Assembly: GCA_963664115.2 (NCBI GenBank)
Contig: CAXWPJ010000002.1
Coordinates: 320,001-384,000, forward strand
From: Terriglobia bacterium
GTDB lineage: Bacteria; Acidobacteriota; Terriglobia; 20CM-2-55-15
Reading direction: 5' to 3'
Length of the DNA stretch: 64,000 bases
Below the pieces are notes generated by a model. It had not been told where the DNA came from. It did not search any database and saw only the letters and a program-made list of their open reading frames with translations. Of the stretch, positions 1-18,629 are shown piece by piece. Position 1 is the first letter of the stretch. The number at the start of each line of letters is the position of its first letter. A program made the position numbers and the translations under genes.

Positions 1-56
1 CAACTGGCTGTATCTCCCATTGTTTCAATGGAATGCGGCGACACGCTAAGCTTGCC

Positions 57-100
57 AATTCTCACTGTCCGACAATGTCGTTTCTCAGGACTTGAGAATT
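57..100 (-). repeat. Hairpin repeat R, inverted copy
   Basis: Reverse complement reads attctcaagtcctgagaaacgacattgtcggacagtgagaatt, closely matching 6838-6880. Confidence 0.85.
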
Positions 101-188
101 TAATGTTGAGAATTTAATAGCGCCTAACTCCCTGCCTTAGTATTCTTTACCGAGTTTTTCGCAGCTTTTTCAGCGACACACTTTAAAC

Positions 189-498: not shown

Positions 499-684
499 TT
501 TCCGCGGGGGAGTTGGGCGCCGGACGACACGATCGTCCTCGGACTGGGTGCCGGAGGGCTGGCTCGCGTTCCCGGAGGCGGTGGCAATCCGGAGATTGTC
601 GCTACCGCGACACTGCGGAGTTCTGACGTCAAGTTGACACTGCTCTTCTAATCCCCGCCCTCCTGCATCTCAAGCTCCTCCACG

Positions 685-1068
685 TTACTCTTCCCAACGG
701 CCGATCGTCGTTCCATCACCTAACTTCGCGCCGACAAAGCCGCCCAGAGGGCGGCCGCTAATATCTCGACGCAACATCATGATCACCTCATCGCCCGGGG
801 TAAACGTTGATGGGCCATAGCCTTGACGATACAGTTGAGCGGGGATACCCCATTCTGCGCTCCACTCAACTCTCTCACCCCCCTCGTCTGTGACATACAC
901 CTGAATCCATGAATGGGGATTCTGGTATTGGAACTCCTTTATGATGCCCTCGATTCTCGTAATCTCCTCACTACGCCTACCCACGGTCGAGTGATGGGCA
1001 GCAGCAAACTCCGCAAAAAACACCAAAGCAACCGCGCCGACAAAACCAAACTTAACCATCGATCGCAT
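685..1068 (-). CDS. DUF6152-like exported protein
   Basis: Signal peptide ending AAA-HHS, plus NPHSWI and WxxE motifs; RBS upstream of ATG 1068. Confidence 0.8.
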   Translation of the reverse strand: MRSMVKFGFVGAVALVFFAEFAAAHHSTVGRRSEEITRIEGIIKEFQYQNPHSWIQVYVTDEGGERVEWSAEWGIPAQLYRQGYGPSTFTPGDEVIMMLRRDISGRPLGGFVGAKLGDGTTIGRWEE

Positions 1069-1130
1069 TCCTCTTCTCCTTTGACAAGATAACTTAACCA
1101 TCGATCGCACTCCTCTACTCCTTTGACAAG
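1049..1130. repeat. 42-bp-period tandem duplication of RBS and start region
   Basis: aacttaaccatcgatcgcaYtcctctWctcctttgacaag at 1049 and 1091, with 2 mismatches. Confidence 0.9.
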
Positions 1131-1218
1131 GCATCGCGTAACACTGACTGCATGCCGCTATTCCACTGGAACACCTCACCGTCCGCCGCCACAGCCAAGC
1201 TTCGCCCCTCTTGATCGA

Positions 1219-2076
1219 CTAATACTCGATTGTTCTCCCCTCTTCATCGACTACCGCTCGATTGTTCTCCGCGCATACGTAGTCGAATATGCGGAACCCA
1301 TCGGGTTGCTGATAGAAGCGCTTCTCGACAACCCAGGGCCTTGTCAGAGCTTGAGGATCTTCGAGAGTTATTTCCACCAACAACACATCTTCCAGTTCCC
1401 CCTGGTCGTTTGCCTCCTGCACGCGTCGAATGCGCGTCGTACCACGCGATTCCTCGCTCAGGACGAGTCCGCTTCTGTCTAAGATACTGTCTTGGTCGCT
1501 CCAACCTTTCAAGCCGATAGTCGTAAAGACGAGAGTATCGCCCTCCCAATGACCAACGGAGTCTCCGTAGAACGTATTCCACGCATCCTCCAAGTGGGGG
1601 CGTCCGTCTGTGTAGATCCTCATGATGCCGCGAGTATGTTCGCTAAGGACCCAGACTTGTTCGGGGCGGACGATGAATTCCGCATTCATGTTCACATTGA
1701 ATATCCGCGGAAACCCGTGCGGAATGCACCTCGTGAGCGGATCGGGAAACCGTCCCTGATCCCTGAGTTCTACATGACTCTGGTAGATCGCCTCCCACTC
1801 CTCGGTATAGGGAGGATGGGCACGAGTGCCCACCGTGTTCACGCCGTATTCGCGGATGTTCGGGTCGGCAGGTTCCCCGTTCAGGGTCCAGGTCTCTTCG
1901 TCGAAAACTGGTCCGGCCCTCCTGGCCCAAACGCCACTCCAATCAGGAAGCGAATCGGAGTCTCGAAGCACCGCTTCTTGTTCCGACTCCAGCGTAGAAC
2001 CAGAAGAAATGGGAACCGCTGCGGTCACAACCGCCGTCAGCGTCAGCGCGACACAGGCCACGCGGCGAGTCAACAT
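1219..2076 (-). CDS. Exported uncharacterised protein of the 'GDSVGHWEGDTLV' family
   Basis: Signal peptide, PDWSGVW, RCIPHGFP, GDSVGHWEGDTLV and DYVCAENN motifs. Confidence 0.8.
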   Translation of the reverse strand: MLTRRVACVALTLTAVVTAAVPISSGSTLESEQEAVLRDSDSLPDWSGVWARRAGPVFDEETWTLNGEPADPNIREYGVNTVGTRAHPPYTEEWEAIYQSHVELRDQGRFPDPLTRCIPHGFPRIFNVNMNAEFIVRPEQVWVLSEHTRGIMRIYTDGRPHLEDAWNTFYGDSVGHWEGDTLVFTTIGLKGWSDQDSILDRSGLVLSEESRGTTRIRRVQEANDQGELEDVLLVEITLEDPQALTRPWVVEKRFYQQPDGFRIFDYVCAENNRAVVDEEGRTIEY

Positions 2077-2460
2077 CTTGAATCCCCTCTCTTGCATTGC
2101 CAAATTACCTCTCTGTCTAAAATGCTTTGCTGTCCCAGTCCGATGGGCTGCATCGATTCAAAACGTCAATAACAGCGAAGATACTCATCTTGATCCTGTG
2201 GACTGATGTTCGTTGGCTCATGAACGCTCACCCCCTAAACGGGGACGTTCAATTTGGTTGCTCAGATCACATCTTTTATACACTGACACCCGCCCGACAG
2301 GCCAGATTTTTCTGTCCCCTCTGTTCCAACATCAGCGAGACGCCTGCCTGATCGATAATTAGTGAGCAGGGCGGGAAGCCTTTTCTACGGTGCAGATCGA
2401 AGTGATGAGCCGGACCAGCTCGCCCTCCACTGGTCGTGCGTATGGTCTGGCCCGTGTGCT

Positions 2461-2677
2461 GGCGGCAGAATTCGTGGCCGGCGCGCCCGATATTGTTATG
2501 CAGGGAGACTACCTCGCGCCCAACAACGGCCGTCCGTATTCCGTTTCGTCTGACGGACAAAGGTTTCTTATGATCAAGGACGCCACGATAGCAGGGGATA
2601 GTGATGTCCTCCCACCCCAGGTCAACATTGTCTTGAACTGGACGAGTGAGCTGCTCGAGCGCGTGCCGGTCCCTTAA
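2461..2677 (+). pseudogene. C-terminal fragment of a kinase-TolB propeller paralog
   Basis: Reads YSVSSDGQRFLMIK...QVNIVLNWTSELLERVPVP*, homologous to the end of 4384-6822. The 5' boundary is approximate. Confidence 0.85.
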
Positions 2678-2724
2678 TTGTCTGGCAGCCTGCCCGCAGA
2701 GCTTCTTCCCTGTGCTTCAAGTCT

Positions 2725-2800
2725 GATTAGGTAACGAGTGGTCACGTAGTGTCTAGGAACCACTGGCACCTAACGTCCCAGAAGTCACCTTATGGGAAGT
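2725..2800 (+). repeat. Non-coding repeat S
   Basis: gattaggtaacga...ctaggaa...taacgtcccagaagtcaccttatgggaagt aligns with 12324-12397. Confidence 0.75.
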
Positions 2801-2839
2801 CAGGTCCCGATAAATCAATTGTCGGACAGTGAGAATTGG
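2799..2839 (+). repeat. Hairpin repeat R variant
   Basis: gtcaggtcccgataaatcaattgtcggacagtgagaattgg; the last 22 nt are identical to the reverse complement of 55-76. Confidence 0.75.
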
Positions 2840-3203
2840 ATGAGATCCGCCAGCTCACAACTTTCTTGCTTATAACCCATACCTGTAGTTAGATTTATCC
2901 AACTTTTTCACGTTTCGTTTCGGCACACACTAATTTATGGAATCTGGCACCAAACTCGGCCACTACGAGATCTCAACGCTCCTTGGAAAAGGAGGCATGG
3001 GGGAAGTGTGGCGTGCCCGGGACACGAAACTGGGGCGTGAAGTTGCGATCAAAACCCTGCCAGAAGAGTTTGCTAAAGATGCTGATCGGTTGGCACGCTT
3101 TGAACGTGAAGCCAAACTTCTGGCGTCGCTGAATCACCCAAACATTGCAGCCATCCACGGGTTTGAAGAGGACAACGGAACGCACTTCCTTGTGCTGGAA
3201 CTA

Positions 3204-4354
3204 GTGGTCCCCGTTAAACAGACTGTAACTTATCAAGATTTCGCCGGCCGCGCTGGACTTTAGCAAGGATGTCGGAAGCCGTTGCAGTCCAGATGAAGGG
3301 TTTCGGGTCTTCATTGTGACGAGCGAGGTAGTCCTCCACGGCCTGGATCAACTCGGGGACCGAGCGGAAAACGCCACGCCGGAGTCGTTGCTCGGACAGA
3401 TCCCGGAAAAAGCGCTCGACCATGTTGAGCCACGACGCACTGGTTGGCGTGAAGTGCACATGAAAACGCTTGTTACGCTTGAGCCAGTTGACGACTTTCT
3501 GATGTTTGTGAGTCGCATAGTTGTCGCAAATAATGTGGATCTCCTTATCTTTCGGCATGGCGCGTTTGATCTGATTCAGAAACCGGATCCATTCCTGATG
3601 GCGATGCTTTGGCATGCAGGTTCCGATGACCGAACCGTCCAGGATGTTGAGCGCGGCGAAAAGCGTGGTTGTCCCGTTACGTTTGTAATCGTGGGTCATG
3701 GTGCCACACCGCCCCTTCTTCAGAGGTAACCCGGGTTGCGTGCGGTCCAGGGCCTGCATCTGGCTCTTCTCATCGCAGGACAAGACAATGGCGTTTTCCG
3801 GTGGGCTCAGATACAGACCGACCACATCCTCCAGCTTTTCGGCGAATCGTTTGTCGTTGGATAGTTTGAAGGTTCGTGACAGATGAGGCTTCAGTCCATG
3901 GACCCGCCAGATTTTCCCGACCGTGGACTCGCTCACGCCAACGGCCTTCGCCATCGAGGCCCGACTCCAGTGCGTCGCGTTCGGGGGCTTCTCTTCCAGT
4001 GTCTTCTTGACGATCCGGGCTCGCTTCCGGCGACTGATCGTGGGAATCCGTCCGCTTCGCGGCGCATCCTTTTCGATCCCAGCCAAGCCCTGTTCCACAA
4101 AACGATTGCGCCAGCGGCCCGCTTTCTGGCGCGTGATCTCCAAGCGGGCGGCGATCTCATAATTGTTCCGACCTTCAGCGGCCAGTAATACAATTCGGGA
4201 TCGTTCCGCCAACCGGACCGATGTACTCCGGCTTCGACTCAGTCGCTCCAACTCCATCCGCTGCTTGTCATCCAATTCAATGGTCGGTGCTTTCCTCATT
4301 CTCTATTGGACGTTGGAAAGCTATTTTAGTTACATTACTTCGAGCGGGGTACAC
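3204..4354 (-). mobile_element. IS630-family insertion sequence, 1151 bp, copy 1
   Basis: Ends gtggtccccg / cggggtacac form imperfect terminal inverted repeats; TA duplicated within a CTAG target; same sequence as 35519-36669. Confidence 0.95.
3214..4299 (-). CDS. IS630-family transposase
   Basis: N-terminal HTH; DEKS, DNYATHK and SWLNMVERFF DDE motifs. Confidence 0.95.
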   Translation of the reverse strand: MRKAPTIELDDKQRMELERLSRSRSTSVRLAERSRIVLLAAEGRNNYEIAARLEITRQKAGRWRNRFVEQGLAGIEKDAPRSGRIPTISRRKRARIVKKTLEEKPPNATHWSRASMAKAVGVSESTVGKIWRVHGLKPHLSRTFKLSNDKRFAEKLEDVVGLYLSPPENAIVLSCDEKSQMQALDRTQPGLPLKKGRCGTMTHDYKRNGTTTLFAALNILDGSVIGTCMPKHRHQEWIRFLNQIKRAMPKDKEIHIICDNYATHKHQKVVNWLKRNKRFHVHFTPTSASWLNMVERFFRDLSEQRLRRGVFRSVPELIQAVEDYLARHNEDPKPFIWTATASDILAKVQRGRRNLDKLQSV

Positions 4355-6837
4355 TAGTAGAAGGCGACACGCTTGCGGATCAGTTGAAGCGTGGTGCCAT
4401 TCCTGTCGAAGAATCACTGAAGCTAGCCTTACAAATCGCGGAGGCTTTGGAGGCCGCGCATGAAAAAGGGGTCATCCACCGTGACCTGAAACCAGCGAAC
4501 GTCAAGGTCACACCAGACGGGAAAGTGAAGGTGTTGGATTTCGGCCTCGCAAAAGCCTTTGACGGGGGCGCCGCTGACGCAAACGTATCGAACTCTCCCA
4601 CGCTCAGCATGGCCGCGACACAGCAGGGTGTCATCCTCGGGACAGCGGCGTACATGTCGCCGGAGCAAGCCCGAGGTGAGAACGCTGACCAGAGGGTCGA
4701 TGTATGGGCTTTCGGAGTGGTTCTGTTTGAGATGCTGACCGGTCGCGGGACGTTTGATGGACACACAGTTTCTGATGTTCTGGCTGCCGTTCTTGCCAGA
4801 GACCCGGATTGGAATAGCCTTCCCCACAACCTACACGCGCAACTGCGGCGACTCCTTGAACGATGCCTATCGAAAGAGTTGAAAGACCGATACCACGGCA
4901 TTGCTGATGCGCGGGTGGATATTGAGAGCGTATTGGCTGATCCCAACGGTGTGATTGCGCAGCCAGTCGCTCAAGTTGTTCAGGCCACCCCGCCGAGACT
5001 CCACGTGGTGGCCGCAATCGCTCTGGCCGCCATGGTTGCCGGTGTGAGTGTCTGGACTCTGAAACCAACCGACCCTCGCCCGGTCAGCCGCCTTGAATAC
5101 AACCTGCCAGAGGGACTCGCTGTACTGGTTCCTAACGGGCGGCCTGCAGTCGCCATTTCACCCAACGGGGAGCAGTTCGTATACTACGCTAACAGTATTG
5201 GGGATAGTGAAGAAGGGCTCTACGTTCGCTCGATGGATGAACTTGAAGCCCGCATTATTCCGGGCGCGGAAAATCCGGAGAACCTCGTCTTCTCACCCGA
5301 CGGGCAGGAAATTGCCTACTACCAAGGAGCGGCGCCCGGGCGATTGATGAAGATCGCAGTTAGTGGTGGTGCACCTGTGACTCTTTCGGAACCAATTGGG
5401 AATCCTTTTGGCGTGAGCTGGGAGTCAGACGGCACGATTCTTTTCGGGCAATCAGATGGGATCTGGAGCGTGTCGGAAAGCGGTGGTGAACCAGACCATT
5501 TGATAGTAACAGAACCGGGTGAACAGGTTCACGGGCCGCAGCTTCTGCCCGGGGGAGAATGGATTCTGTTCACGCTTACTGGTGAGACTGGAGACAGCCG
5601 TTGGGACGAAGCCAACATCGTTGTCGAGTCGCTTTCCTCCGGCGAGCGTCGAGTATTGCGACAGGGCGGCAGCGACGCTCGTTATGTTCCGACTGGACAT
5701 CTCGTCTATGCTTTCGGAGATGGGCTCTTCGCCTTGCCCTTCGATGTGGACAGTCTGGAACTCAGTGGGGGACCCACATCGATACTTCAAGGTGTTCGAC
5801 GGGCCTTTGCCCCAGGACTCCAGACCGGCGTAGCGTATTATGGCTTTTCCAACAACGGGACGCTCGTTTATCTTCCCGCACCTCCTCCTTACGGTGTGTC
5901 CACGCTGGTCACAGTGGATCGTAGTGGGAACCCCCAGTCCTTCACCGGCGAAGCGCGCAACTATACCCGACCCCGGGTCTCACCCGACGGCAGCCGCGTT
6001 GCCGTAGAGGCCACCGAGACAGGCGGAGCTACACCTACCCACATTTGGATCGTGGATATTGAAACCGGGAATGGCACGCAACTGACGTTTGAAGGATCGC
6101 AGAATGAGTTTCCTGTGTGGGCGCCCGATAGTCAGACGGTCGTCTTCAGGTCTGACAGATCCGGGAGGATGGCGCTTTACACGAAGTCGGCGGCTGGCAG
6201 CGGAGAGGCTGAATTAGTGTTTGAAGGAAGCGGCACGCTGGTTGCCACCGACGTGCTACCCGATGGGACCCTGCTCTTGCAGGAGTCCAACGGTGACAAC
6301 GATGACATCTGGACACTGCCTTTAGACGGCGACGGCTCTCCCTCGGAGTTCCTGGCGACACCGGCCAATGAGCGGAGTGCACGCTTCTCTCCCGACGGCA
6401 GATGGATCGCATACATTTCCGACGAGTCCGGCCAGTTTCATGTCTACGTGCGACCCTACCCTAGGTCGAACGGAGGGCAGAGGCGCGTTTCAGAAAGTGG
6501 GTTTGGGAACTATGCGCCGGTCTGGTCTCCCGATGGGGGCCAGCTATACTATGTCGCGGGACCTCCAGAGATTCTGATGAACGTCCCGATACAGACAGAC
6601 CCCAACCTGCTGCCTGGCCGCCCACAAGAATTGTTCCCGATCGATGGAGCATTTCAGGCCGACGCGCGGACAACATTTGTCCCACTCTGGGGTCTCACTC
6701 CCGATGGGACACAATTCGTATTCGTCCAAGCGGCAGCGCGGGACAACCCCGACGTACCCACGCAATTCAACGTCGTCCTGAACTGGTTTGAAGAACTGAA
6801 AGAACGGGTGCCGGTGCCATAGATGACCGTGAAAATG

Positions 6838-6880
6838 ATTCTCAAGTCCTGAGAAATCATCTTGTCGGACATTGAGAATT
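6838..6880 (+). repeat. Hairpin repeat R
   Basis: attctcaa-gtcc-t-ga [loop] tc-ggac-a-ttgagaat: an inverted repeat with two unpaired bases. Confidence 0.85.
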
Positions 6881-7035
6881 CTTGAACATAGGTGCCGAGT
6901 CACGAAAAGTCCGGAGACGCCGTAAATGAAGCCGAAAAGCATGAACTTCCACTCAACTGTAAATTGCCTGCTCGTAGTGGCTGTTGCCATCGGGATGGAG
7001 GCCGCGTTCTGCGGTACTAACGCGGGGGGGGCGAT

Positions 7036-8559
7036 ATGAATCGACGAGAGTTCATTGGCAGTGCGACGGGCTTGGGTGCGGCATTGGCATTCCCCGCCGG
7101 GCGTTCAAGTAGACTCATGGCGATTCAACTGCCAACCGACATCGTCGGCTTCACTGCGTCGCAACTGTCGACGGCTATCCAACAAAGACAAGTTAGTTGC
7201 GTCGAAGTGATGGAAGCCTATCTACAACAGATTCACCGTTACAATCCAGTCTATAACGCCATCGTCAGCATGGCCGATGACGATCTGCTAATCAGCCAGG
7301 CGGAACTCGCCGATCAAGCCTTGGCCCGCGGCGAATATCGGGGTTGGATGCACGGAATGCCTCATGCCGTCAAGGACCTGTACGATGCGGAAGGCTTTCC
7401 AACAAGCAGGGGCTCTACCATCTACGCGGGAACCGTGGCGGAACAAGATAGTTTCATGATCGGCAGAATCCGTAGCCAGGGCGCGATCTTCATAGGAAAG
7501 ACGAATGTGCCTGAATTTGGTATGGGTTCGCAATCATACAACCCTGTATTCGGTGCCACGGGCAGCGCGTACAATCCGGCACTGACGGCAGGTGGTAGCA
7601 GTGGTGGCGCCGCAAGTGGTCTTGGGACCCACATGCTTCCGGTGGCTGACGGTGGTGACTTGATGGGGTCGCTTCGCAATCCAGGCGCCTTCAATAACGT
7701 GATCGGATTTAGGCCTAGTCAGGGGCGAGTGCCGGGCGGTGGCGGGGGCGACCTGTTTTACCAGCAGATGTCCACAGGTGGTCCGATGGGGCGTAACAGT
7801 GAAGATACGATTCGCCTTCTGCACAGTATCGCCGGCTACGACTCCGGCCAACCGCTGACCCTCAGGGGTGAAATACCGCCCTATGAGGAGTTCAGGGCGC
7901 GTGATCTACGGGACCTCAAAATCGGGTGGATGGAAAATTATGAAGGCTATCTCAACATCGAACCTGGCATTCTTGAACTCTGTGAAGCCAGCCTCGGTGG
8001 TCTCACAAGAGAGGGCGCGATTGTCGAGTCGTGCAGGCCACAGTACGACATGGACCGGCTTTGGCAGACTTGGCTGACGTTACGCCACTGGACCCGTCAC
8101 GGAACTAGGGCGCTCTACGACGATCCCGACACTCGAAAGCTGTTAAAGCCGGAAGCCATCTGGGAGATCGAAGGCTCGTTCGACGCTTCGGGGGCGGATA
8201 TATACGAGGCAGGAATCGCCCGTGCAGACTGGTTCCGTGCTTTGGATTCTCTGTTTGATGAGTACGACTTCTTGGTCTTGCCAACTGCTCAGGTATTTCC
8301 TTTCTCAAAGGAGATTCATTGGCCCGAGTCCATCAACGGCGTTCGGATGGACACCTATCATCGCTGGATGGAGGTAGTAATTGGGGGGACATTGGCTGGC
8401 CTCCCAGTGGTCAACGTACCCGTGGGGTTCGATCAGCGGGGCCGACCCATGGGCATGCAAGTCATGGGACGGTTCGGGGAGGATCAGAGGATTCTGGAAT
8501 TTGCCATGGCCTACGAACGAGTTACGGATCACCTAGACCTGCGTCCAGAATTGGTTTAA
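7036..8559 (+). CDS. Amidase signature family protein with Tat signal
   Basis: MNRREFI Tat motif, KD, GGSSGGAA, GGDLMGSLRNP. Confidence 0.92.
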   Translation: MNRREFIGSATGLGAALAFPAGRSSRLMAIQLPTDIVGFTASQLSTAIQQRQVSCVEVMEAYLQQIHRYNPVYNAIVSMADDDLLISQAELADQALARGEYRGWMHGMPHAVKDLYDAEGFPTSRGSTIYAGTVAEQDSFMIGRIRSQGAIFIGKTNVPEFGMGSQSYNPVFGATGSAYNPALTAGGSSGGAASGLGTHMLPVADGGDLMGSLRNPGAFNNVIGFRPSQGRVPGGGGGDLFYQQMSTGGPMGRNSEDTIRLLHSIAGYDSGQPLTLRGEIPPYEEFRARDLRDLKIGWMENYEGYLNIEPGILELCEASLGGLTREGAIVESCRPQYDMDRLWQTWLTLRHWTRHGTRALYDDPDTRKLLKPEAIWEIEGSFDASGADIYEAGIARADWFRALDSLFDEYDFLVLPTAQVFPFSKEIHWPESINGVRMDTYHRWMEVVIGGTLAGLPVVNVPVGFDQRGRPMGMQVMGRFGEDQRILEFAMAYERVTDHLDLRPELV

Positions 8560-8590
8560 AGAACTGAAGGAACGGGTGCCGGTGCCGTGA
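8549..8590 (+). repeat. Kinase 3'-tail copy (NWFKELKERVPVP*)
   Basis: aattggtttaaagaactgaaggaacgggtgccggtgccgtga versus 6781-6822. Confidence 0.92.
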
Positions 8591-8676
8591 TCGGTTTGCA
8601 TTTCCTACTCACCACTCGACCAGCGTCTCTTCCGTAATCGCCGCCCCGCAGCCATCGAAACGAACCCTGCGCTTCA

Positions 8677-8705
8677 TTGACAGTGCCATTCGCAAACTCT
8701 ACAAT
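8677..8705 (+). promoter_or_regulatory. sigma70-type promoter
   Basis: TTGACA-17 nt-TACAAT upstream of the MBL-fold gene. Confidence 0.7.
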
Positions 8706-8743
8706 TCGCTGAAAACTGCTCCGCATTACAAGAGGTGACTCCA

Positions 8744-9724
8744 ATGAAACGAGCTATGGTATATGTGGCGTCGGGCGCGGTGTGCGCTATTCTTTCCTGC
8801 GGTTCCGCCTTTTCCCAGGAAGCTATTCCGACTGGAGGCCCGATTCCCGACATACGCGGATTCACCAGCCGGCTCAACGATCCCGAGGCGGTTGCGGCGA
8901 TCGAGGTAGTTGTCCGCCATGTTGCCGGGCAGGTGTACGTGATTGCGGGCGCAGGTGGGAATGTGACGGTCATGGCGGGCGATGATGGCATTTTCATCGT
9001 CGACACGAATTACCCCGCTTTCTACGACCAGATCATAGCCGCAATTCGACGCATCTCGGACGGGCCCATCCGCTTCGTGGTCAACACGCACTCTCACCTA
9101 GACCACAGCGGCAACAACGAAAGCTTTGCCAGGGAGGGCGCGGTGATCATCACTCAGCCCAACCTGCGCCGGGCGTTGATAGGAGATCGCAGCGGTTCGG
9201 ATCTTCCGGGCGGATTGCCTGTGATCACATCGACGGAACCGATGTCGTTTCACTTCAACGGGGAGGAAGTTCTCTTCGTGCCGTTGAAGCCCTCGCACAC
9301 GGACGGAGACGCGGCGGTGTACTTCAGCGGTTCCGACGTGTGGTCCTTTGGTGACGTGTACCGGACGGACTATCCGTCCTTGAATCCCTCCGTTGGTGGC
9401 ACGATTGAGAATTTCGTTGATATTTACAGCATGGCGCTTGATATGACGACGCCGGCCACGATTTTTGTCCCCGGCCACGGCCAACTCTCGCCCAGAGAGG
9501 AGCTGAGCGGAGTGCTTGACGCCGTGATCACGATTCAGGGTCGTTTCCGCGACATGGTGGCACGGGGCATGACGCTCGACGAGATCATGGAGGCACGTCC
9601 GTCAAGGGAGTTCGATGCTCGCTTCTCCAGCGAATCCAAATCGCCCACCACGGGCAATACGGTAGAGCGCGTTTACACTCGCTTTTACGAAGATGTTTCA
9701 CGGGAGCTGGCGGAACAACAGTGA
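8744..9724 (+). CDS. Exported MBL-fold metallo-hydrolase (cyclase-like)
   Basis: THSHLDH, HTDGD, GD and PGHG motifs; signal peptide. Confidence 0.9.
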   Translation: MKRAMVYVASGAVCAILSCGSAFSQEAIPTGGPIPDIRGFTSRLNDPEAVAAIEVVVRHVAGQVYVIAGAGGNVTVMAGDDGIFIVDTNYPAFYDQIIAAIRRISDGPIRFVVNTHSHLDHSGNNESFAREGAVIITQPNLRRALIGDRSGSDLPGGLPVITSTEPMSFHFNGEEVLFVPLKPSHTDGDAAVYFSGSDVWSFGDVYRTDYPSLNPSVGGTIENFVDIYSMALDMTTPATIFVPGHGQLSPREELSGVLDAVITIQGRFRDMVARGMTLDEIMEARPSREFDARFSSESKSPTTGNTVERVYTRFYEDVSRELAEQQ

Positions 9725-9913
9725 AGGACTTCCCCGGATGGGTCCTGTCATGTTAGCTGGAATTCGTTCTGTTTCGAGGAGAAATCGATTCTAGCCAGGC
9801 CAGGAATCATCAACTTAGCTGGCATTGCGATCAGTGAAATCTTCATTTGATCGGTTTACTTGGCAACCCCTTTCTGTAGGACCGTCTTCTCTACACATGG
9901 TGGCCGCTAGAAA

Positions 9914-9969
9914 ATCAACATCGTCCTGAACTGCTTGAAGAACTGAAGGAACGGGTGCCGGTTCCTTAG
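9914..9969 (+). repeat. Kinase 3'-tail copy (INIVLN..EELKERVPVP*, 1-nt deletion)
   Basis: atcaacatcgtcctgaactgcttgaagaactgaaggaacgggtgccggttccttag, followed by gaccgtgaaaatgatt as after 6822. Confidence 0.92.
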
Positions 9970-10009
9970 ACGACCGTGAAAATGATTGTCAACGCCCGAT
10001 AAATCAATT

Positions 10010-10083
10010 CGGATCAACCGGTCGATGCAACACTTTACTGAAAAGGAGAGGTCAAGTGTTGCATCGATCTATTGAGACCACCC
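10010..10083. mobile_element. Miniature inverted-repeat element with IS30-like ends, inside an R copy
   Basis: tcaaccggtcgatgcaacactt ... aagtgttgcatcgatctattga inverted repeat around an 18-nt spacer, flanked by the two halves of R. Confidence 0.6.
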
Positions 10084-10156
10084 ATCTTCGCGGACGTTGA
10101 GAATGCGTCGATTCCAATCATTGCTTCCAACCCACTCGTTCTAAAGCATAGGACTG

Positions 10157-10217
10157 GTTGCCCTAAGCCGACTCCTGGGGCGTTGAATTTGGATCGGTAA
10201 ACGAAACGGCGTTACTC
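10157..10217 (-). repeat. Repeat S, inverted partial copy
   Basis: Reverse complement aacgccccaggagtcggcttagggc matches aacgacccagaagtcggcttaggg (~12369); gagtaacgcc is also shared. Confidence 0.65.
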
Positions 10218-10490
10218 GCGAGTAATCGTCGTTGATACCGCACGTCCTCAACCGCCGCGGACTGGGTGTCCGCAGCCCTTTCGACACTCTTGAACCTATA
10301 GTCGCTGTGCAAATCATCGAAAGATGGGGGTATGCGGTCATCTAGGTCTACAATGAGAGAAATCGGGATGGTAGCACTCCTCCATTAGCACCCACCGCAT
10401 CTGCTCTGCGAAGTCATCCTGTGCTGGTCCGGCCGTCCAAACCGAGGCACTGGATCGACGCTCCAAAACCTGTCGGTCACCCGGAGAACC

Positions 10491-12179
10491 ATGGAACTCG
10501 AAGAGAAATCTAATGAAGTGCAGAATCTCATCGCTAGGGGGAAGGAAAAGGGCTACTTGCTCTACGAGGACGTGAGCGATCTCCTGCCGCCCCAGATGAC
10601 GGCTTCGGCCGAGGCTCTCGAGGACCTGTTTTCTGCTTTCGACGCGGCCGGAATCGAGGTGATTGAGACCGAGGATCAGTCCTTTGCGACCGAGAAGCTG
10701 ACCCCATCGAAGAGACCCACTGCGGCGACGCGCACGAATGAAGTGACGTCGGACCTCACTCCGGGCGCTCGGGACAGGACGAATGACCCGATCCGCATGT
10801 ACCTGCGTGAGATGGGCACGGTTCCCCTCTTGACGCGTGCTGGCGAAGTACAGATTGCCAAGAGGATCGAACGGGGGCAGTTGCGGGTGCAGCAGTCGCT
10901 CTCTCGCTCCCCGCTGGTAATCCAGAAGATTCTGGCTGCAGGCGAGGCGTTGAAGAAGGATCCCAGCGTCATCAAAAACCTCGCGCAATTCACCCAAGAT
11001 GATCTGACTGAGGAGAGGATCGAAGAGATCCACGGCAACGTGGTTGAGACCATTGCTCAGATCAAGAGACTCAACCGCCGAGTGGGCACGCTCCAGACGA
11101 AACTGGTATCGATTCCGAGGTCTCGAAAGGCGAGGGAGCATCATAAGGCACGCTGGAAATTGGGTCGGAAACGAGTCGAACTCTCCAGGCTTGTCCGATC
11201 TTTGGATTATTCGGCAACGGAAAAGATGGCCTTGATTCTGCTCGTGCGCGAAGCTATCAGCATCATTCGACCGTTGGAGAAACAATTGGCCCATCTGGAG
11301 CGCAGTAAGGGCCACACGAGGAAGGAATACAGGAAGAACGTCCAGAAAGAAATCCGTGCGGTCAAGCGGAAGATCAAGGCTTTCGAACAAGAGCACGATA
11401 CGACCGCCCTGGAACTACGTCGCACGCTGCAGTCGATCGTGCGCGGCCAGAACCAGGCCGAAAACGCAAAGCGGGAACTCGTAGAAGCAAACTTGCGTTT
11501 GGTCGTTTCGATCGCTAAGAAGTACTCGAATCGAGGCTTGCAGTTGCTCGACATGATCCAGGAAGGCAACGTCGGCCTGATGAGGGCTACCGATAAGTTT
11601 GAGTACCGAAGAGGGTATAAGTTTTCGACCTACGCGACCTGGTGGATCCGGCAGGGGATTACGCGGGCGATCTCCGATCAGGCAAGAACAATCCGTGTTC
11701 CGGTCCACATGATGGAGATGATTAACAAAATGATACGGACTTCCCGGATGCTGGTTCACGAATTGGGGCATGAGCCGACCAACGACGAAATTGCAGAGAA
11801 GATGGGGATCCCCGTAGGGAAGGTCCGGAAAATCATGAAGGTCGCTCAGCAACCGATCTCACTGGAAACGCCGATCGGAGAAGAGGACGATTCCCATTTG
11901 GGGGATTTTATCGAGGACCCAGGCGCGGTCTCCCCTTCCGATGCGGTGGTCAAGCTGAACCTCAATGAGATGACCGAGCAGGTCCTGAACACGCTGACGC
12001 CTCGTGAGGAGCGCATCATCAAGATGAGATTTGGCTTGGAGGACGGCAGCGAACACACCTTAGAAGAAGTTGGACAGATCTTTGGCGTGACCCGAGAGAG
12101 GATCCGTCAGATTGAAGCGAAGGCTCTCAAAAGGCTGCGCCACCCGACGAAGAGTTCGCGCCTCAGGGGCCTTTTGTGA
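10491..12179 (+). CDS. rpoD: RNA polymerase sigma-70 factor, RpoD-like (probable accessory paralog)
   Basis: Region 1.1, [37 protein letters not shown] and TLEEVG...[13 protein letters not shown]. Confidence 0.92.
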
Positions 12180-12207
12180 CGGCACGGGGCTCGACTGATT
12201 TATCTTA

Positions 12208-12237
12208 AAATTGAAGGAACGGGTGCCGGTGCCCTGA
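12208..12237 (+). repeat. Kinase 3'-tail copy (KLKERVPVP*)
   Basis: aaattgaaggaacgggtgccggtgccctga. Confidence 0.9.
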
Positions 12238-12246
12238 TTTCCAAGT

Positions 12247-12285
12247 TCAAGTCCTGTTGAGATCACACCCGTTGTCGGACGTTGA
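12247..12285 (+). repeat. Hairpin repeat R variant
   Basis: tcaagtcctg...ttgtcggacgttga. Confidence 0.75.
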
Positions 12286-12323
12286 CCTTCGCGGAAAAGT
12301 GTCTAGGACCTGGAGTAACGCCG

Positions 12324-12397
12324 GATTAGTAACGATAAGTCGCCTAGCGTTTAGGAATCGGGGGCATTAACGACCCAGAAGTCGGCTTAGGGGAAGT
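12324..12397 (+). repeat. Non-coding repeat S
   Basis: Aligns with 2725-2800. Confidence 0.75.
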
Positions 12398-12418
12398 TGG
12401 CGGAGACAGAGATGACGG

Positions 12419-12454
12419 CTCAAGTCCTGAGAAATCATCTTCTCGGACATTGAG
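12419..12454 (+). repeat. Hairpin repeat R
   Basis: ctcaagtcctgagaaatcatcttctcggacattgag; one mismatch to 6841-6876. Confidence 0.9.
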
Positions 12455-12493
12455 AGTCGAAGCTACAACTTTCCGATAGGCCGACTGGAGTCT

Positions 12494-12970
12494 ATGTATG
12501 CCGTCGAACCGGCATCAACACACGAAAGGATAGGGATGGTTCCCTCGGAGAAAGAAATAACTGCACAAGAGTTCGAAAAGCGACTGGCGGCGCTCTGTCG
12601 CGGCACGAATTCCGGTCTGCCTAGAAAACATCGGGATCGTCACATCATATTCAGAAGTATCGTTCAGACACTCGACGCAAAGGTCATGTATTCCGAGCAA
12701 TCGCTCAACGAGGGCTTGAAGGCATGGGTGTCTGAAGTCGGCATGGGAATTGCGGTCGATCACGTAACACTTAGGCGCTATTTGGTCGATGCAGGGTATC
12801 TATGTCGTGATCGCCAAGGGACTAACTATCGGGTACAAATTGGTGGGGCTGGAGAGGTGAGATTCGAACCCTCGGTAGGCAGCGTAGATTCAGCCGCTGT
12901 CATTCATTCGGCGCGTGAGCAGGCAGCCATTCGGAAGCGCGATCGATCCGTACAATCTCCGCAGAACTGA
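12494..12970 (+). CDS. DUF2087-like winged-helix protein
   Basis: LPRK, YSEQSLN and DHVTLRRYLVDAGYLCRD..G..Y motifs. Confidence 0.75.
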   Translation: MYAVEPASTHERIGMVPSEKEITAQEFEKRLAALCRGTNSGLPRKHRDRHIIFRSIVQTLDAKVMYSEQSLNEGLKAWVSEVGMGIAVDHVTLRRYLVDAGYLCRDRQGTNYRVQIGGAGEVRFEPSVGSVDSAAVIHSAREQAAIRKRDRSVQSPQN

Positions 12971-12993
12971 AGGAACGGGTCCCGACCCCCTGA
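12964..12993 (+). repeat. Kinase 3'-tail copy (ELKERVPTP*)
   Basis: gaactgaaggaacgggtcccgaccccctga, followed by ttcttgagttcaggtcct (start of a truncated R). Confidence 0.85.
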
Positions 12994-13051
12994 TTCTTGA
13001 GTTCAGGTCCTTCCAGCATTTGACACCTGGGTGTGTTGACCTGTCGCATGG

Positions 13052-13456
13052 CTATCGCTGTCGAGCTCGGGGATTGGGACCCGCGAAGAGCCTGCGGCCG
13101 TCATCAAATGTCACCGTGGAAATATTCGCTGTCGGGCTGCCGTTGCGGGCCTGCCAGCCCTCGATCTTGAGAATGGTGCCCGTCGGTAAATCTTCCTTAC
13201 GCCAGCCACTCCGAATCAGGCCATTGGCCCCGCGAGTCTCAAGCGCCCAGTTCACTACATTACCGGTCTCATCTTCCACTTCGATGTAGATCCAGGCGTG
13301 CGGGTTCGACCATTTCATCTCGATGACTCGACCCGTCAATTCAACGGGTCTGTCGATATCGAATTCGGCCGAAAACGAGTGGTGCGCGATGGCGGTTCCA
13401 GCCAATATCGTGACGCTTAAGCTGGTGGCGAGCACTGAGATGAGTATGCGATTCAT
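13052..13456 (-). CDS. DUF6152-like exported protein
   Basis: AHHSFSAEFD and WSNPHAWI motifs. Confidence 0.85.
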   Translation of the reverse strand: MNRILISVLATSLSVTILAGTAIAHHSFSAEFDIDRPVELTGRVIEMKWSNPHAWIYIEVEDETGNVVNWALETRGANGLIRSGWRKEDLPTGTILKIEGWQARNGSPTANISTVTFDDGRRLFAGPNPRARQR

Positions 13457-13460
13457 GATC

Positions 13461-15008
13461 CTACTCCTCCGGGTTCAGACTTGATCGGTATTCGTCGCGG
13501 ACGTCCTTCAAAATTTGAAGATCGCCGTTGTCCTCTAAACAGGCGACTTCGAGCAACTCGTCCTCGGCCCGATTGAAAGGCATCTCGATGGTCCACGGCC
13601 GCGTGTATGGAATCGGGTCCGCAACCGTCGCACGGTAAACGATCTGTGTCGGGCTGACTGGCGTAAATGTCTCGACGACGGTCTGCATGTGGCTGACGAC
13701 ATCACCGGCCTCGTTGAGCCAGGCCTTGCCATTGAAATTCTTAGACTCGACAACGAGCGTATCGCCTTCCCAACGGCCAATCGAATCCCCCATCCAAAGC
13801 CGCAGTTGATCCGGCAGTGGGGGGCGCCCATCGAGCGAAATTTGCCGCCAGGACATGCGCTCGTGCAGCACCACAACGTACCCGGGAGGTTGCAAAATAT
13901 AAAACGGTGCCGGCACATAGTGCGAACGCGGCACACCTCCCACAAAACAGTGCGCTGTCGGGTCGTCGTAACCGCGATGCGGGCGCAGGCGGTCGTTCAG
14001 CTCGGAACGCGCCCAGGTTTGATATGGCAACCGACCCTCCGGTGGATCGATGACTTGACCGCGACTTGCAGGCAGCAAGAAGTCTCGCTCGTGTTCCTCG
14101 AGCCCGTAGTTCGCGCCGCCTGCGTCTGCCATGAAGTAGCCGGATATGTCGGGCGTACCGTCCCTAAGGCGCGGAATATCCTCCGACGCTTCAGGCAACG
14201 GCAGCTCGACACCCGCATCGGCATCGAAAGGCTCGTTGTCGACTGGGACCGCTGCCGGGTACCAGTTCCTGACATCACGCTCGAAAGCGCCGTTCGCCTC
14301 CTCCTTCTCTGCCTGACATTGATATTCGAGAATGCGATCCATGCCGGCCTGACGATAGAAAGCCATTCGAATCGTCCAGGGACGTGTAAACACGTTGGGG
14401 TCTTCGATTGTTGCTTCATAGTCGATCGTGTCCCCATCCCTCATGTGGTAACGCTCGGTCACACGCAGCGCGCTGCTGTGAAAATTACCGGCCGCATCGA
14501 ACCAGGTTTGATCGTTGTGATCCGTTATTTCAACGACGAGCATGTCGCCTTCCCAGCGCCCGCGTGAATTGCCCATCCACGATTCGATGCCGCCATAAAG
14601 TGGCGGCTGACCATTCGTATAAATAAGCCGGTGGACCTGCTGCCACTCGAACGTGATCGCCACATGCTCGTCCGTCTGAAAGATGTGAAACGGCCAATCC
14701 ATGTACATGACGCGCGGGGTTCCCGGCAGGAAGCAGTTGTTGAGCGGATCGGCCGTCGAGCGGTTCTCAAAATTGACCTGCCGCTCGGAGGCGGCCCAAG
14801 GCTGGTAAGGAATCGTGCCACCCTCGACGATGCTGCGGCCAGCCGGCATCGCGTTCCGCGCGACATGATCCTCGAGGTTGTAGGATGCGCGATTGGCCAC
14901 CTGCCAAATGCCCTGCAGGTTGGGCCGGCCTTCGGGGGTGCGCGGCAAGGTCTGTGCGGATGCAGAGCCCACGACGAACGCAAGCGCGATCACGGAATAA
15001 AATCGCAT
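13461..15008 (-). CDS. Exported protein with two tandem 'SxGRWEGD' domains
   Basis: GNSRGRWEGDMLVV and GDSIGRWEGDTLVV, each domain with a Cys pair. Confidence 0.85.
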   Translation of the reverse strand: MRFYSVIALAFVVGSASAQTLPRTPEGRPNLQGIWQVANRASYNLEDHVARNAMPAGRSIVEGGTIPYQPWAASERQVNFENRSTADPLNNCFLPGTPRVMYMDWPFHIFQTDEHVAITFEWQQVHRLIYTNGQPPLYGGIESWMGNSRGRWEGDMLVVEITDHNDQTWFDAAGNFHSSALRVTERYHMRDGDTIDYEATIEDPNVFTRPWTIRMAFYRQAGMDRILEYQCQAEKEEANGAFERDVRNWYPAAVPVDNEPFDADAGVELPLPEASEDIPRLRDGTPDISGYFMADAGGANYGLEEHERDFLLPASRGQVIDPPEGRLPYQTWARSELNDRLRPHRGYDDPTAHCFVGGVPRSHYVPAPFYILQPPGYVVVLHERMSWRQISLDGRPPLPDQLRLWMGDSIGRWEGDTLVVESKNFNGKAWLNEAGDVVSHMQTVVETFTPVSPTQIVYRATVADPIPYTRPWTIEMPFNRAEDELLEVACLEDNGDLQILKDVRDEYRSSLNPEE

Positions 15009-15526
15009 GATGTTCTCCGATCGTTCAATCCTACTCTCGACCACGAACGCCGCTCGTCGTTCAAGGGTTTCCCTTCAGAAAACACAGCTACCTGAAGCGT
15101 TCACGATCGAGCGTGATGATTCCCGAAACAGCATAGACGAAAAAGGACCCTTATCTCAATTACCGACAGGTACTCGAAGAGAGGTCCGAGGTGCAGAGGG
15201 TGGGAAGTCGCACGGCGGGAATGTCGCAGGTGGGGTGTGATGTTGAGCCGCACGAGGCAGGACGGCGGAATCAAGATGGTCAATCGCGCCTGGGCCGAAT
15301 CACATGGCCACATGGTATGGATGTGACCGCATCGTGGATTGGAAAATAGCACCAACGGTCCGGCCGACGCGGGTCACGAACCGGCCCGAAGGTGCCGGGA
15401 AGGTTTGTTGACAGTGATCGATTCCTTATGAGAGATTAGGCTTGCCAAAATCCTACAGGGTGCGTACATACTGAGGTCGGAGCGCAGGGAGTCCTGCGAT
15501 TGGCTCTGGGAACGGAGAGGTCTTTA

Positions 15527-16432
15527 ATGCACAGCGGGTTGAAAGTCGTAACCGTAGCTGTGGTGACGATCACCGTCATCGCTATCGTCTCTCCGGCGGT
15601 CGCGACCGCAGGCCAGACGCCGTCGGATGAGTTGTTTCCGCCCTACACGACCCCACGTACGGCGGACGGCAGACCCGACCTCGGCGGGATCTGGCAATCA
15701 TTCACCACAGCGAACCGGAATATTCTGGCGCATTCGGCGGAGCCGGGAGCACATCCCGAACTCCTGGGCGCGTGGGGCGCGAGTCGAGGGGCACTCAGCA
15801 TCGTCGAGGGCAATGAGCTGCCCTACCAGCCGTGGGCAGCAGCCCAGCAGATAGAGAATTACGAAAACCGAACCCTCGTCCAGGTCACGAACGACCCCAG
15901 TCGCTTCGACACGGGCGACCCGGAAATTCAGTGTTACCGGGCCGGCGTGCCACGCGCCAACTACATGCCGTATCCGTTTCAGATCTTTCAGACGCCAGAG
16001 CAGATTCTAATCGTGTACGAGTACAAGGGTGCGTCCCGCACCATTAACATGGATTCTGAACAGGGCGCGCCCGGTGATACGTGGATGGGTTGGTCGAATG
16101 GGCATTGGGAGGGCGACACGCTGGTCGTCGACGTAACGGGATTCAACGGCCACACCTGGTTCGATCGGGCCGGGAATTTCCATAGCGACGCCCTGCACGT
16201 GGTCGAGCGCTGGACGCGGGTCAGTGCCTACCACATGCGATATGAAGCGACCATCGAGGATCCGAATGTCTTCACGCGACCCTGGAAGATGAGCTTCCTG
16301 CTCTATCGACAGGTGGAAGAGAATGCCCGACTGATCGAGTTCAATTGCATACCTTTCGTAGAAGAGCTCATGTACGGGCCGCTCGGTTTTTTGGGCAGGC
16401 AAGAAGCAGAAAATCAAGAACCGGACGATTAG
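15527..16432 (+). CDS. Exported 'WEGDTLVV'-family protein
   Basis: PRTADGRPDLGGIW, GWSNGHWEGDTLVV, EFNC. Confidence 0.85.
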   Translation: MHSGLKVVTVAVVTITVIAIVSPAVATAGQTPSDELFPPYTTPRTADGRPDLGGIWQSFTTANRNILAHSAEPGAHPELLGAWGASRGALSIVEGNELPYQPWAAAQQIENYENRTLVQVTNDPSRFDTGDPEIQCYRAGVPRANYMPYPFQIFQTPEQILIVYEYKGASRTINMDSEQGAPGDTWMGWSNGHWEGDTLVVDVTGFNGHTWFDRAGNFHSDALHVVERWTRVSAYHMRYEATIEDPNVFTRPWKMSFLLYRQVEENARLIEFNCIPFVEELMYGPLGFLGRQEAENQEPDD

Positions 16433-16444
16433 GAGGGGTATGAG

Positions 16445-17563
16445 ATGGGTACTGTAGCATGGGCGCCACGGCGTGTTTCGATGCTCTTGCTGGCGGTGAT
16501 GTTGTGGGCGTCGATCCCGGTCACGGGCCAAGCCCCGCCGTCCGCGCTCATCAACCAGCGGTCAGAAGAAACCGTCGAGGCAGCCCGAGAGGCTTCTCCG
16601 CGCACTCCGGAAGAAACATTTGCGTACTTCGAGGATGAGGTCGACGAGGCGCTCGCACAAGCAATCCGGCAGGTGTGGGATCCCACCCGGATTCGACCGA
16701 ACTCCCCACGTACCCCGTGGGGCGACCCGGACCTCGGGGGATACTGGTTGAACGCGGCCTATACGCCCTTGGAACGGCCCGACGAGCTCGCAGGAAAGCC
16801 GCTGTATACGATAGAAGAAGCGATCGAAGCGTTCCGGGGATACGTCACCCGGGATGCATCCGTCGATCCGGCAACGGTGCATTATGATTGGACGGAGTTC
16901 GGGATGGACATCTGGCAGAGCCCGGTTCGACCGAACCGCCGCACGGCGCTGATCGTGGATCCGCCGGACGGGAAGCTTCCCGCTCTGACGCCTGAGGGGC
17001 GGGAACGATTACAAACGCAGGCCAGGCTGGACACACTCGAATCCCGGAGCCTGTATGAGCGCTGCATCTCCGGGAACCAGGGCCCGCCAGGGATTCCTTT
17101 CACCCAGCAAACCGGTGAGGCTCAGATTATCCAGACGCCGGACCACGTGGTACTCACCATGCAGTCGAATAGTGATGTGCGCATCATCCCCCTGGATGGA
17201 CGCCCGCGCCCTCCAGACAGCATTCGAGCTTGGTTGGGCGATGCACGCGGCCGCTGGGAGGGTGATACGCTCGTCGTTGAGACGACGAACTTCCATGAGG
17301 AGCGCAAGTGGAGAGGAGCTGCGGACAACCTGCACCTCGAGGAACGCTTCACACGAATCGACGAGGTCACACTTCTTTACGAAGCCACGATCACCGATCC
17401 GACGACGTGGGAGGCGCCCTGGACAGTGGAGTTTCCCTGGCCGAAATTGGAACCGCCGGGGCTGTTTGAGTTCGCGTGCCACGAGCAGAATTATGGCATC
17501 ATTAACGTCATGCGAGGCGTACAGGCTCGGGCAGCCGAATACGAAGCCGCGTTGGAGAGGTAA
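16445..17563 (+). CDS. Exported 'WEGDTLVV'-family protein
   Basis: PRTPWGDPDLGG, GDARGRWEGDTLVV, EFACHEQNY. Confidence 0.85.
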   Translation: MGTVAWAPRRVSMLLLAVMLWASIPVTGQAPPSALINQRSEETVEAAREASPRTPEETFAYFEDEVDEALAQAIRQVWDPTRIRPNSPRTPWGDPDLGGYWLNAAYTPLERPDELAGKPLYTIEEAIEAFRGYVTRDASVDPATVHYDWTEFGMDIWQSPVRPNRRTALIVDPPDGKLPALTPEGRERLQTQARLDTLESRSLYERCISGNQGPPGIPFTQQTGEAQIIQTPDHVVLTMQSNSDVRIIPLDGRPRPPDSIRAWLGDARGRWEGDTLVVETTNFHEERKWRGAADNLHLEERFTRIDEVTLLYEATITDPTTWEAPWTVEFPWPKLEPPGLFEFACHEQNYGIINVMRGVQARAAEYEAALER

Positions 17564-18624: not shown

Positions 18625-18629
18625 TGTCA

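Follow-up and report, generated by a model that had tools for sequence, protein, structure and literature searches.

Integrons are defined by an integrase gene (intI), arrays of attC sites with RYYYAAC and GTTRRRY cores, a single crossover base, and cassettes that lack promoters. Integrative elements that target the 3' ends of genes leave displaced fragments that start at one crossover core, and an integrase is, or formerly was, carried by each block. In the T4-type phages RB49 and phi1, composite intergenic repeats of about 100 bp, the PeSL elements, combine a stem-loop with a promoter and flank nonessential genes in variable regions; mini-circles and a terminator function have been demonstrated experimentally for these repeats (PMC2839356). 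In this study, we analyzed a 64-kb stretch of DNA (the window; positions 320001 to 384000 of contig C2) from the genome of an uncultured Terriglobia bacterium, in which copies of the 3' end of a Ser/Thr kinase gene recur between unrelated genes. The array of these copies extends beyond the start of the window, from about position -8700 to position 19280 in window coordinates.

The genome under study is termed G000, and G002 is a congeneric genome; T denotes the kinase tail, R a hairpin, R' the inverted hairpin, and H the kinase head. With moderate confidence, we favor the interpretation that homogenized pieces of kinase junctions act as short anchors for homologous recombination, which shuffles blocks of genes without a dedicated integrase.

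Results

Kinase-junction pieces as cassette borders

A preliminary description of the window had reported five direct repeats of the last codons of the kinase gene, with one co-oriented gene in each interval, and both observations hold. Copies of this repeat (family D3) lie at 6774, 8542, 9921, 12189, and 12945, at spacings of 1768, 1379, 2268, and 756 bp, and the intervals contain genes for an amidase, an MBL-fold hydrolase, an RpoD-like sigma factor, and a DUF2087 protein. A sixth, diverged copy is present at 2629 to 2673. A 27-nt core of the tail, with up to 6 mismatches, had 140 matches in the genome and none in one shuffle of contig C2 (one strand).

Profile searches (E of ≤0.01) identified 152 T, 221 R, and 99 H in G000; six pairs of T are identical duplicates within repeated stretches. 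Only 4 kinases are uninterrupted, and 10 tails are attached to more than 600 nt of kinase, so that orphan tails far outnumber kinases, as had been anticipated. The 314 units consist of T, R, and H in that order or of parts of this series (88 R, 66 TR, 57 T, 41 H, 27 RH, 11 TRH, and others), and the T-R-H unit is the junction between two tandem kinases. The anchor is thus the whole tandem-kinase junction (tail, R, promoter, and head), kept in pieces of variable length, instead of the kinase end alone. Among 148 retained tails, 12 are 30 nt or shorter, 45 are 31 to 45 nt, 18 are 46 to 56 nt, 29 are 57 to 75 nt, 25 are 76 to 150 nt, and 19 are longer; lengths form a continuum between less than 30 and more than 600 nt, and heads retain 17 to about 300 coding nt.

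Most of the T and R copies (323 of 373) lie in 28 mostly co-oriented arrays that total 525 kb, or about 11% of the genome. The 227 inter-anchor intervals have a median length of 1.74 kb and, by the gene calls made in this analysis, contain no gene other than those of insertion sequences (IS) in 42 cases, one in 96, two in 56, and more in 33. Since only 96 of the 227 intervals hold a single non-IS gene and only 176 of 293 cargo genes are co-oriented (40% are inverted), the window is neater than the rule.

Of 288 cargo proteins of at least 110 amino acids, 150 were scanned for families. They included 18 DUF6152 proteins, 10 MBL-fold proteins, 5 NHL proteins, diverse enzymes and transporters, an S1 protein, four transposases, one reverse transcriptase, a few kinase fragments, and 44 proteins without a family; no recombinase family was found among these 150 proteins. 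Many of the cargo genes encode hydrolases, and second copies of core genes also occur as cargo, namely, RpoD (10491 to 12179 in the window) and ribosomal protein S1 (L112:9973-11403). The gene nearest upstream of a tail ends at a median distance of 125 bp, and cargo stops before or inside T in another reading frame. A role for T as an in-frame C-terminal tag on cargo was rejected, since it is not general.

Exchange within the anchors

Where two anchors share one flank, the anchors differ at 10.9 to 16.2% of positions and the flanks at 3.5 to 5.8%; random pairs of anchors differ at 16 to 25%. The 3' end of T and its stop codon are random relative to the upstream flank and follow the downstream flank, and therefore crossovers have occurred inside T. 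The variable sites of R track neither flank. The far side of the anchor differed in 26 of 28 cases for T with a shared upstream flank, in 16 of 16 for R with a shared downstream flank, and in 10 of 11 for T with a shared downstream flank. In many of these swaps the other part of the anchor was missing from at least one genome: R was present in one genome only in 14 of the 28 cases, T was present in one genome only in 11 of the 16, and 5 of the 11 took place at T without a following R. T alone and R alone therefore both serve.

The ends of the kinase genes are homogenized, as follows from their fourfold-degenerate sites. In 15 pairs of full kinases from G000, G001, and G002, identity at these sites was 0.75 (n = 93) in the last 16 codons and 0.50 in the first 60 codons, compared with 0.27 to 0.34 elsewhere in the body and 0.27 to 0.37 expected from codon use. 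Differences from the tail consensus at first, second, and third codon positions numbered 57, 46, and 247 in 111 orphan tails and 13, 6, and 45 in 20 kinase-borne tails, so that orphans show the same third-position bias without excess decay. The tails of the window likewise differ chiefly at third codon positions and in the stop codon, as first described, with one residue change besides in the last copy. Because orphans differ from the consensus no more than kinase-borne tails do, this synonymous variation is better read as a continually exchanged pool of tails than as one lost paralogue per tail. The related suggestion that kinase bodies were replaced by cargo survives in part: head-cargo-tail units exist (189 to 2677 in the window), but a separate lost paralogue need not be assumed for every tail.

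The joints between cargo and tail were compared with homologues that lack T. In four relatives the amidase is three codons longer; the window amidase is shorter because its joint to T lies inside the gene end, where the sequence switches to T within about 8 similar bases. The G002 amidase has an independent joint to a tail about 70 bp further on. The DUF2087 gene occurs in G004 without T, and its stop codon in the window now lies inside T. The joint between the RpoD-type gene and T is common to G004, at 74% flank identity, with tails near the consensus in both genomes; this cassette is old. Among 22 T-less homologues, exact overlap at the joint was 0 nt in 13 and 2 to 7 nt in 8, although several of these rows, including one of 27 nt, are tails that have degenerated or ends that match by chance; reading by eye covered only the joints of the amidase, of DUF2087, and between head and tail. 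As judged from these alignments, the cargo-tail joints are illegitimate, without a fixed position, and with short or no microhomology. The proposal that tails are anchors for gene capture thus stands insofar as tails are cassette borders and points of exchange; the arrays have neither a fixed crossover site nor a dedicated recombinase.

Cassette traffic among relatives

All 41 tail-pattern loci listed from the genome collection are titled as Terriglobia (Acidobacteriota) metagenome-assembled genomes (MAGs). In a set of 41 genomes, the tail pattern was found in 13 (G000, 112; G002, 99; G004, 56; G001, 39; G003, 23; G007, 22; G021, 20; G013, 14; G017, 9) and the R pattern in 6 of 41 (G000, 121; G002, 79; G003, 35; G001, 8; G007 and G017, 1 each; G004, G013, and G021, 0), with diverged R-like sites present in G004. 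Near-full sensor bodies, counted by eye from the match lists, number about 7 in G002, 17 in G004, 3 to 5 in G001 and G003, and over 20 in G007, and are also numerous in G013, G017, and G021. By these counts, rows of kinases represent the usual condition, and this genus is marked by R-containing arrays in which orphans dominate. Genomes in which canonical R is rare or absent also contain orphan tails. In other Terriglobia MAGs (L123, L125, L127, L134, and L146), the stop codon of one kinase overlaps the start codon of the next (ATGA), and truncated tail-head junctions are also orphaned; the anchor therefore exists without R.

The kinase, amidase, MBL-fold, and DUF2087 genes of the window lie in four distant places in G002, and cassette order differs between the arrays of G002 and G000. 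The 40 G002 loci compared were chosen for their anchors or homologues and are thus selected regions, and the segments are not independent. They share 59 low-copy segments with the arrays of G000, only 1 of which spans an internal T or R with 300 bp on each side. Of the 115 ends of shared segments, 47 fall at an anchor in G000 as well as in G002, 18 in only one of them, and 50 in neither; anchors with 50 bp on each side make up 10% of array DNA. Median identity was 93.9% for the 59 array segments and 88.2% for 85 segments outside arrays (P = 8e-7, with the segments not independent). Single arrays of G001 and G002 combine blocks from many different arrays of G000.

Within G000, a 1,327-bp block that runs from R to R is 99.3% identical at C2:264297-265623 and C6:43763-45089, is free of IS, and has unrelated flanks; several further duplicates end at anchors. 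The alternative raised at the outset, a fixed gene order that decayed by deletion, is refuted by the reordered cassettes together with this duplicate.

The hairpin and the elements inserted at it

R consists of two 14-bp arms and a 6-bp asymmetric spacer, of which a few classes exist, and most positions are conserved in at least 97% of copies. It folds with two bulges at about -11 kcal/mol (DNA parameters) and, by eye, has no U-tract; the left arm carries AAG (G in 97%), and only 52% of copies have G at the base that faces it. Positions 18 and 29 are degenerate and symmetric, show no base-pair covariation (mutual information, P = 0.18, n = 134), and are not Watson-Crick paired in about two-thirds of copies, which fits recognition of the double strand by a protein. 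A search of window positions 1 to 20000 gave no Rfam match at an E value of ≤1. R may be a coding fragment, as its variable sites 15, 18, 30, and 36 share a codon phase, but no source gene was seen. The single copies of R in G007 and G017 also follow kinase tails.

A possible but unlikely alternative to homologous exchange is that R is the core site of a tyrosine recombinase, so that R-by-R recombination moves the cassettes with an enzyme supplied in trans by elements that combine an integrase with IS91, while T would be a passenger or back-up homology. The anatomy of R, with inverted arms around an asymmetric spacer in the 6- to 8-bp range, is that of such a site, and the conservation, the symmetric positions 18 and 29, and the few spacer classes speak for this view, as do 11 of 16 swaps in which R is the only shared homology. 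All eight integrase-IS91 elements of G000 lie in R or a degenerate R or about 20 to 30 bp from one; one lineage sits exactly at the spacer-arm edge of R' (C12:569262 and two G002 loci), and the C3 copy is at the R spacer. The integrase of these elements scores best against the integron-integrase model, below its cutoff (187 of 265 bits). On the other side, strand exchange within the spacer was not borne out, since the left arm is unlinked to the upstream flank and the right arm to the downstream flank, although later conversion could hide such linkage. The arms fail to travel with the flanks even in the 99.3% duplicate, which is inconsistent with one crossover at the center of R unless its trace was lost through later conversion. 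Moreover, the 5 swaps at T proceeded without a following R, and G004 has 56 tail-pattern matches with no R-pattern match, only diverged R-like sites. An IS30-type element (4 of 6 copies at R and 6 of 6 at some anchor) and two IS110-type families (6 of 6 and 4 of 5 copies at R) target R too, as parasites of any abundant repeat. The targeting of abundant palindromes and repetitive extragenic palindromes (REPs) by IS is known (PMC1525189), and insertions at R may therefore be parasitism only; they still keep the recombinase alternative alive.

The integrase-IS91 elements are found at C12:569262, at C3:2939, and in six identical copies (e.g., L003:900-3400) in G000 and at L044 and L032 in G002; their apparent crossover point is a short core that contains GTT. 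Locus L001:4040-7159 contains two near-identical Y1 genes, resembling those of REP-associated tyrosine transposases (RAYT), that flank a nucleotidyltransferase-like pair (by eye), next to a tRNA-like fragment and one R. G000 also has a true integron (L002:576-5760, contig C9), with an IntI above the cutoff, downstream co-oriented genes, and a canonical attC-like site, without R. This IntI, the only full integron integrase in G000 (439 bits), lies about 190 kb from the nearest anchor and was rejected as the enzyme for the arrays, given the distance and its own attC-like site.

Organization of the window

Near the left edge, an inverted hairpin R' (55 to 99, minus strand; R profile, E = 3e-6) precedes an orphan kinase head (129 to 483, plus strand), which comprises the upstream region and the first ~100 codons, with the ATG at 189 (head profile, E = 4e-105; repeats D2 and D14). 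Two cargo genes (685 to 2103, minus strand), encoding a DUF6152 protein and a partner without a Pfam family (Pfam search and open reading frames), replace the kinase body; the unit is 94 to 98% identical in G002 (L027 and L028), in another context. An orphan kinase 3' fragment with a diverged tail follows (2390 to 2677, plus strand), whose open reading frame ends in the tail motif (D3 copy at 67%). The DUF6152 pair is the commonest cargo pair, at 685 to 2103 and 13052 to 18061 of the window and in many arrays, and is abundant outside arrays too.

All features from here on are on the plus strand unless stated. A hairpin R (2798 to 2839; R search) is followed by the kinase gene (2937 to 6822; PF00069 and PF07676), which encodes a Ser/Thr kinase with a TolB-like (PD40) propeller and is split by an IS630-type element (3201 to 4358, minus strand; repeat I1, 24 genome copies, from repeat and family searches); its G002 orthologue is 88% identical, in another context. 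Its tail T (6763 to 6822; repeat family D3 and tail profile) leads to R, with the 14-bp arms and 6-bp asymmetric spacer (6837 to 6880; R profile), and to the amidase gene (7036 to 8559; PF01425). The T that ends the amidase cassette (8542 to 8590; tail search) is joined to the MBL-fold hydrolase gene (8735 to 9724; PF00753), a joint also present in G001; this gene retains its native upstream region, with its own sigma70-like promoter sequence. The next T (9912 to 9969; tail search) is followed by an R (9989 to 10104; read from the sequence and IS comparison) that is split by a 62-bp palindrome (10014 to 10075), the arms of which resemble the ends of the IS30-type element of the genome.

The gene for the second RpoD-type sigma factor (10491 to 12179; family search), whose last codons are shifted by one base relative to homologues, precedes a 30-nt T (12208 to 12237; tail search) and a degenerate R (12247 to 12285; read from the sequence). 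A gene-free spacer of about 130 bp (12286 to 12417), like an empty mini-cassette between two R copies, has a 3' part that recurs before R in G002 (L035). The free R that follows (12418 to 12459; R search) is the upstream border of the DUF2087 cassette, which is 92% identical from R to T in G002, with different neighbors; the gene (12494 to 12970; family search and homologues) more likely starts at 12536. After its T (12962 to 12993; tail search) there is a strongly degenerate R (13003 to 13039; read from the sequence), and the last R of the array is at 19243 to 19280 (repeat D8 and R search). Independent contigs bridge the T copies at 12208 and at 12962. The initial impression that most tails are followed by R therefore needs qualification: R is intact after the kinase's own tail, split after 9969, degenerate after 12237 and 12993, and absent after 8590. 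The reported lack of an integrase was upheld, with no PF00589 match in the window.

Elsewhere in G000, a noncoding element of about 123 bp lies inside T at an identical base in 7 of 7 copies (C2:744680 and 764511; C6:31871; C9:937978; C12:562362, 577991, and 585432), and the same joint occurs in relatives; it is possibly a miniature inverted-repeat transposable element or a scar left by an integrative element with the kinase tail as its target. The genome has over 200 multicopy elements, and its IS load is very high, with 70 IS1380-type, 50 IS256-type, and 24 IS630-type copies in addition to group II intron fragments; these type names were assigned from protein resemblance.

Discussion

We have presented evidence that a cassette network in this genome is real and probably active and independent of an integrase; its enzyme and vector are what we infer. 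The starting point, seen by comparison of genomes, would be rows of kinase-propeller genes in Terriglobia, whose ends are kept alike in DNA while their bodies diverge. Foreign or relocated genes may then have become joined to a tail or a head by illegitimate recombination at variable positions; the joints are seen in the sequences, and the cause is our interpretation. The patterns of exchange suggest that a block between anchors could be excised, copied, inserted, or replaced via crossovers at any point in T, R, or H, probably by RecA, and that blocks may also move between species. Each circle that inserted would bring in one more anchor, which would account for a ratio of anchors to kinases of about 15:1 or more. 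RecA and DprA are present in G000, and several IS families use the abundant anchors as targets.

Several observations weigh against this interpretation. Homology is short: for two anchors, the longest exact match has a median of 15 nt and reaches at least 25 nt in only 13% of pairs; 83% of anchors have some partner with a match of at least 25 nt, and the window's own tails share 9 to 25 nt. Such lengths are at the lower limit for RecA. R is conserved beyond the needs of passive homology and has the anatomy of a recombinase site, and its variable sites, which track neither flank, call for frequent conversion in addition to crossing over. Although ComEC was found in 5 of 5 relatives, it was not found in G000, nor were RecT and Ku in this 97% complete genome. 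Neither the T nor the R pattern had a match in viral contigs, which leaves a phage vector unsupported. No circle, excision scar, or filled and empty pair was seen in contigs from 8 of 23 listed runs, which break at repeats; repeat-to-repeat joints in those contigs can stem from other loci and were left unused. The relatives' loci were picked for their anchors and yield segments that are not independent, detection of tails by similarity favors fresh copies, no anchor lies at 50 of the shared ends in either genome, and the genome is very rich in IS.

The recombinase view can be extended to a distributed super-integron with outsourced enzymes, in which the ends of a signaling-gene family and R would make up a dedicated network of exchange sites, maintained by selection, over a tenth of the chromosome, in which R would be a true recombinase or recombination-loading site served by the IS91-linked integrases and in which sensor bodies and metabolic genes would form one cross-species cassette pool; we regard this extension as doubtful. 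It is decidedly improbable, in our judgment, that an expansion of kinases collapsed in IS-rich accessory islands and left the stubs as passive debris, with rearrangement by transposons and ordinary deletion, so that the stubs would only mark former boundaries. Fragments of every length and the more than 200 multicopy elements would agree with debris, and relatives from other genera keep many full kinases (G007 has over 20 near-full bodies and 22 tail-pattern matches). Nevertheless, anchors change about two to four times as fast as cargo, in the direction of other anchors; orphan tails are no more decayed than kinase-borne tails; R-to-R duplicates free of IS exist; and the amidase acquired its joint to a tail in independent events in G000 and G002.

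It is very improbable that R belongs to the REP-like elements, dispersed into intergenic spaces by an HUH (RAYT) transposase together with variable lengths of tail and head, while the cargo itself stays immobile. The bulged hairpin in about 200 copies, the inverted R-R' pairs, and the targeting by IS are as described for REPs (PMC1525189), and a Y1 transposase gene of G000 has one R about 260 bp upstream of it. Against this, no R was found in 19 Y1-transposase loci of five relatives, an empty site with both flanks adjacent was not seen in the comparison with G002, 57 of the 314 units are T alone, and cargo clearly changes neighbors; RAYT as the mobilizer is unsupported, with no cognate RAYT gene flanked by the repeat. 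Misassembly at the repeats, raised as a concern in the preliminary description, is very unlikely, and an array created by the assembly can practically be dismissed: no independent contig spans the whole stretch and a few identical duplications lie at contig ends, but contigs assembled from other runs extend across the tails at 12208 and 12964 and across the joint from the MBL-fold gene to T, the same joints recur in G001, G002, and G004, and the repeats are about 100 bp long and 10 to 25% diverged.

Exchange between short homologous anchors, if it is the mechanism, shows a route to an integron-like accessory genome without an integron: concerted evolution of the ends of one gene family yields a genome-wide set of compatible docking points. 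Since there is a gradient from kinase rows (G007, G013, G017, and G021) to arrays almost entirely filled with cargo (G000 and G002), the origin of a cassette system can be followed. Defined sites also make it testable how genes first become cassettes and whether 30 to 100 bp of shared sequence suffices for traffic across species.

Comparison with known systems

The arrays resemble integrons in that a bulged hairpin, which IS110-type elements target, separates many co-oriented cassettes with one or two genes each. They are not an integron: there is no intI beside the arrays and no AAC/GTT core pair at the base of the hairpin; crossovers are not confined to one base, and hairpin sites are random with respect to both flanks; cassettes keep their promoters, 96 of 227 intervals hold a single gene, and 40% of genes are inverted. 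As in elements that target the 3' ends of genes, copies of a gene 3' end separate inserted blocks; unlike in those elements, fragment lengths here are continuous, and no recombinase was found in the 150 cargo proteins scanned.

In the NIME/dRS3 arrays and minimal mobile elements of Neisseria, abundant short repeats are likewise held to promote the exchange of neighboring genes, as has been proposed, and the same two rival mechanisms, homology and a target for the recombinase of a mobile element, are raised there as here (PMC1797815). As portrayed in that account, those arrays hold syntenic positions and diversify flanking alleles, whereas here whole genes relocate and the repeat derives from a kinase family. 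Displacement of Rhs C termini, as set out in PMC2935791, also gives arrays of orphan gene ends, formed by homologous recombination through proposed circular intermediates at a conserved part of a large gene. There the orphan is the variable payload; here the orphan end is constant, and unrelated genes, unfused to the kinase, form the payload. Orphans that act as alternative in-frame C termini, as in Rhs, were not found, since cargo ends before or inside T in another frame.

No description of the system reported here was found in the main texts of the open-license PMC and bioRxiv literature. By analogy, the arrays appear to work most like the PeSL shuffling of phages RB49 and phi1, as far as it is described in PMC2839356: crossovers occur at different points in the repeat, with no dedicated integrase. 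Repeats that border gained, lost, or moved genes and variable crossover points within the repeat were both found here. The differences are that our arrays, known from sequence alone, lie in a bacterial chromosome and take up 11% of the genome, in about 230 intervals; that the anchor comes from the ends of coding genes; and that the cargo is full size, keeps its own upstream regions, and appears to be exchanged between species. What this study adds to such systems is the scale, the interspecies traffic, the recent copies within one genome, and the evidence of exchange between anchors.

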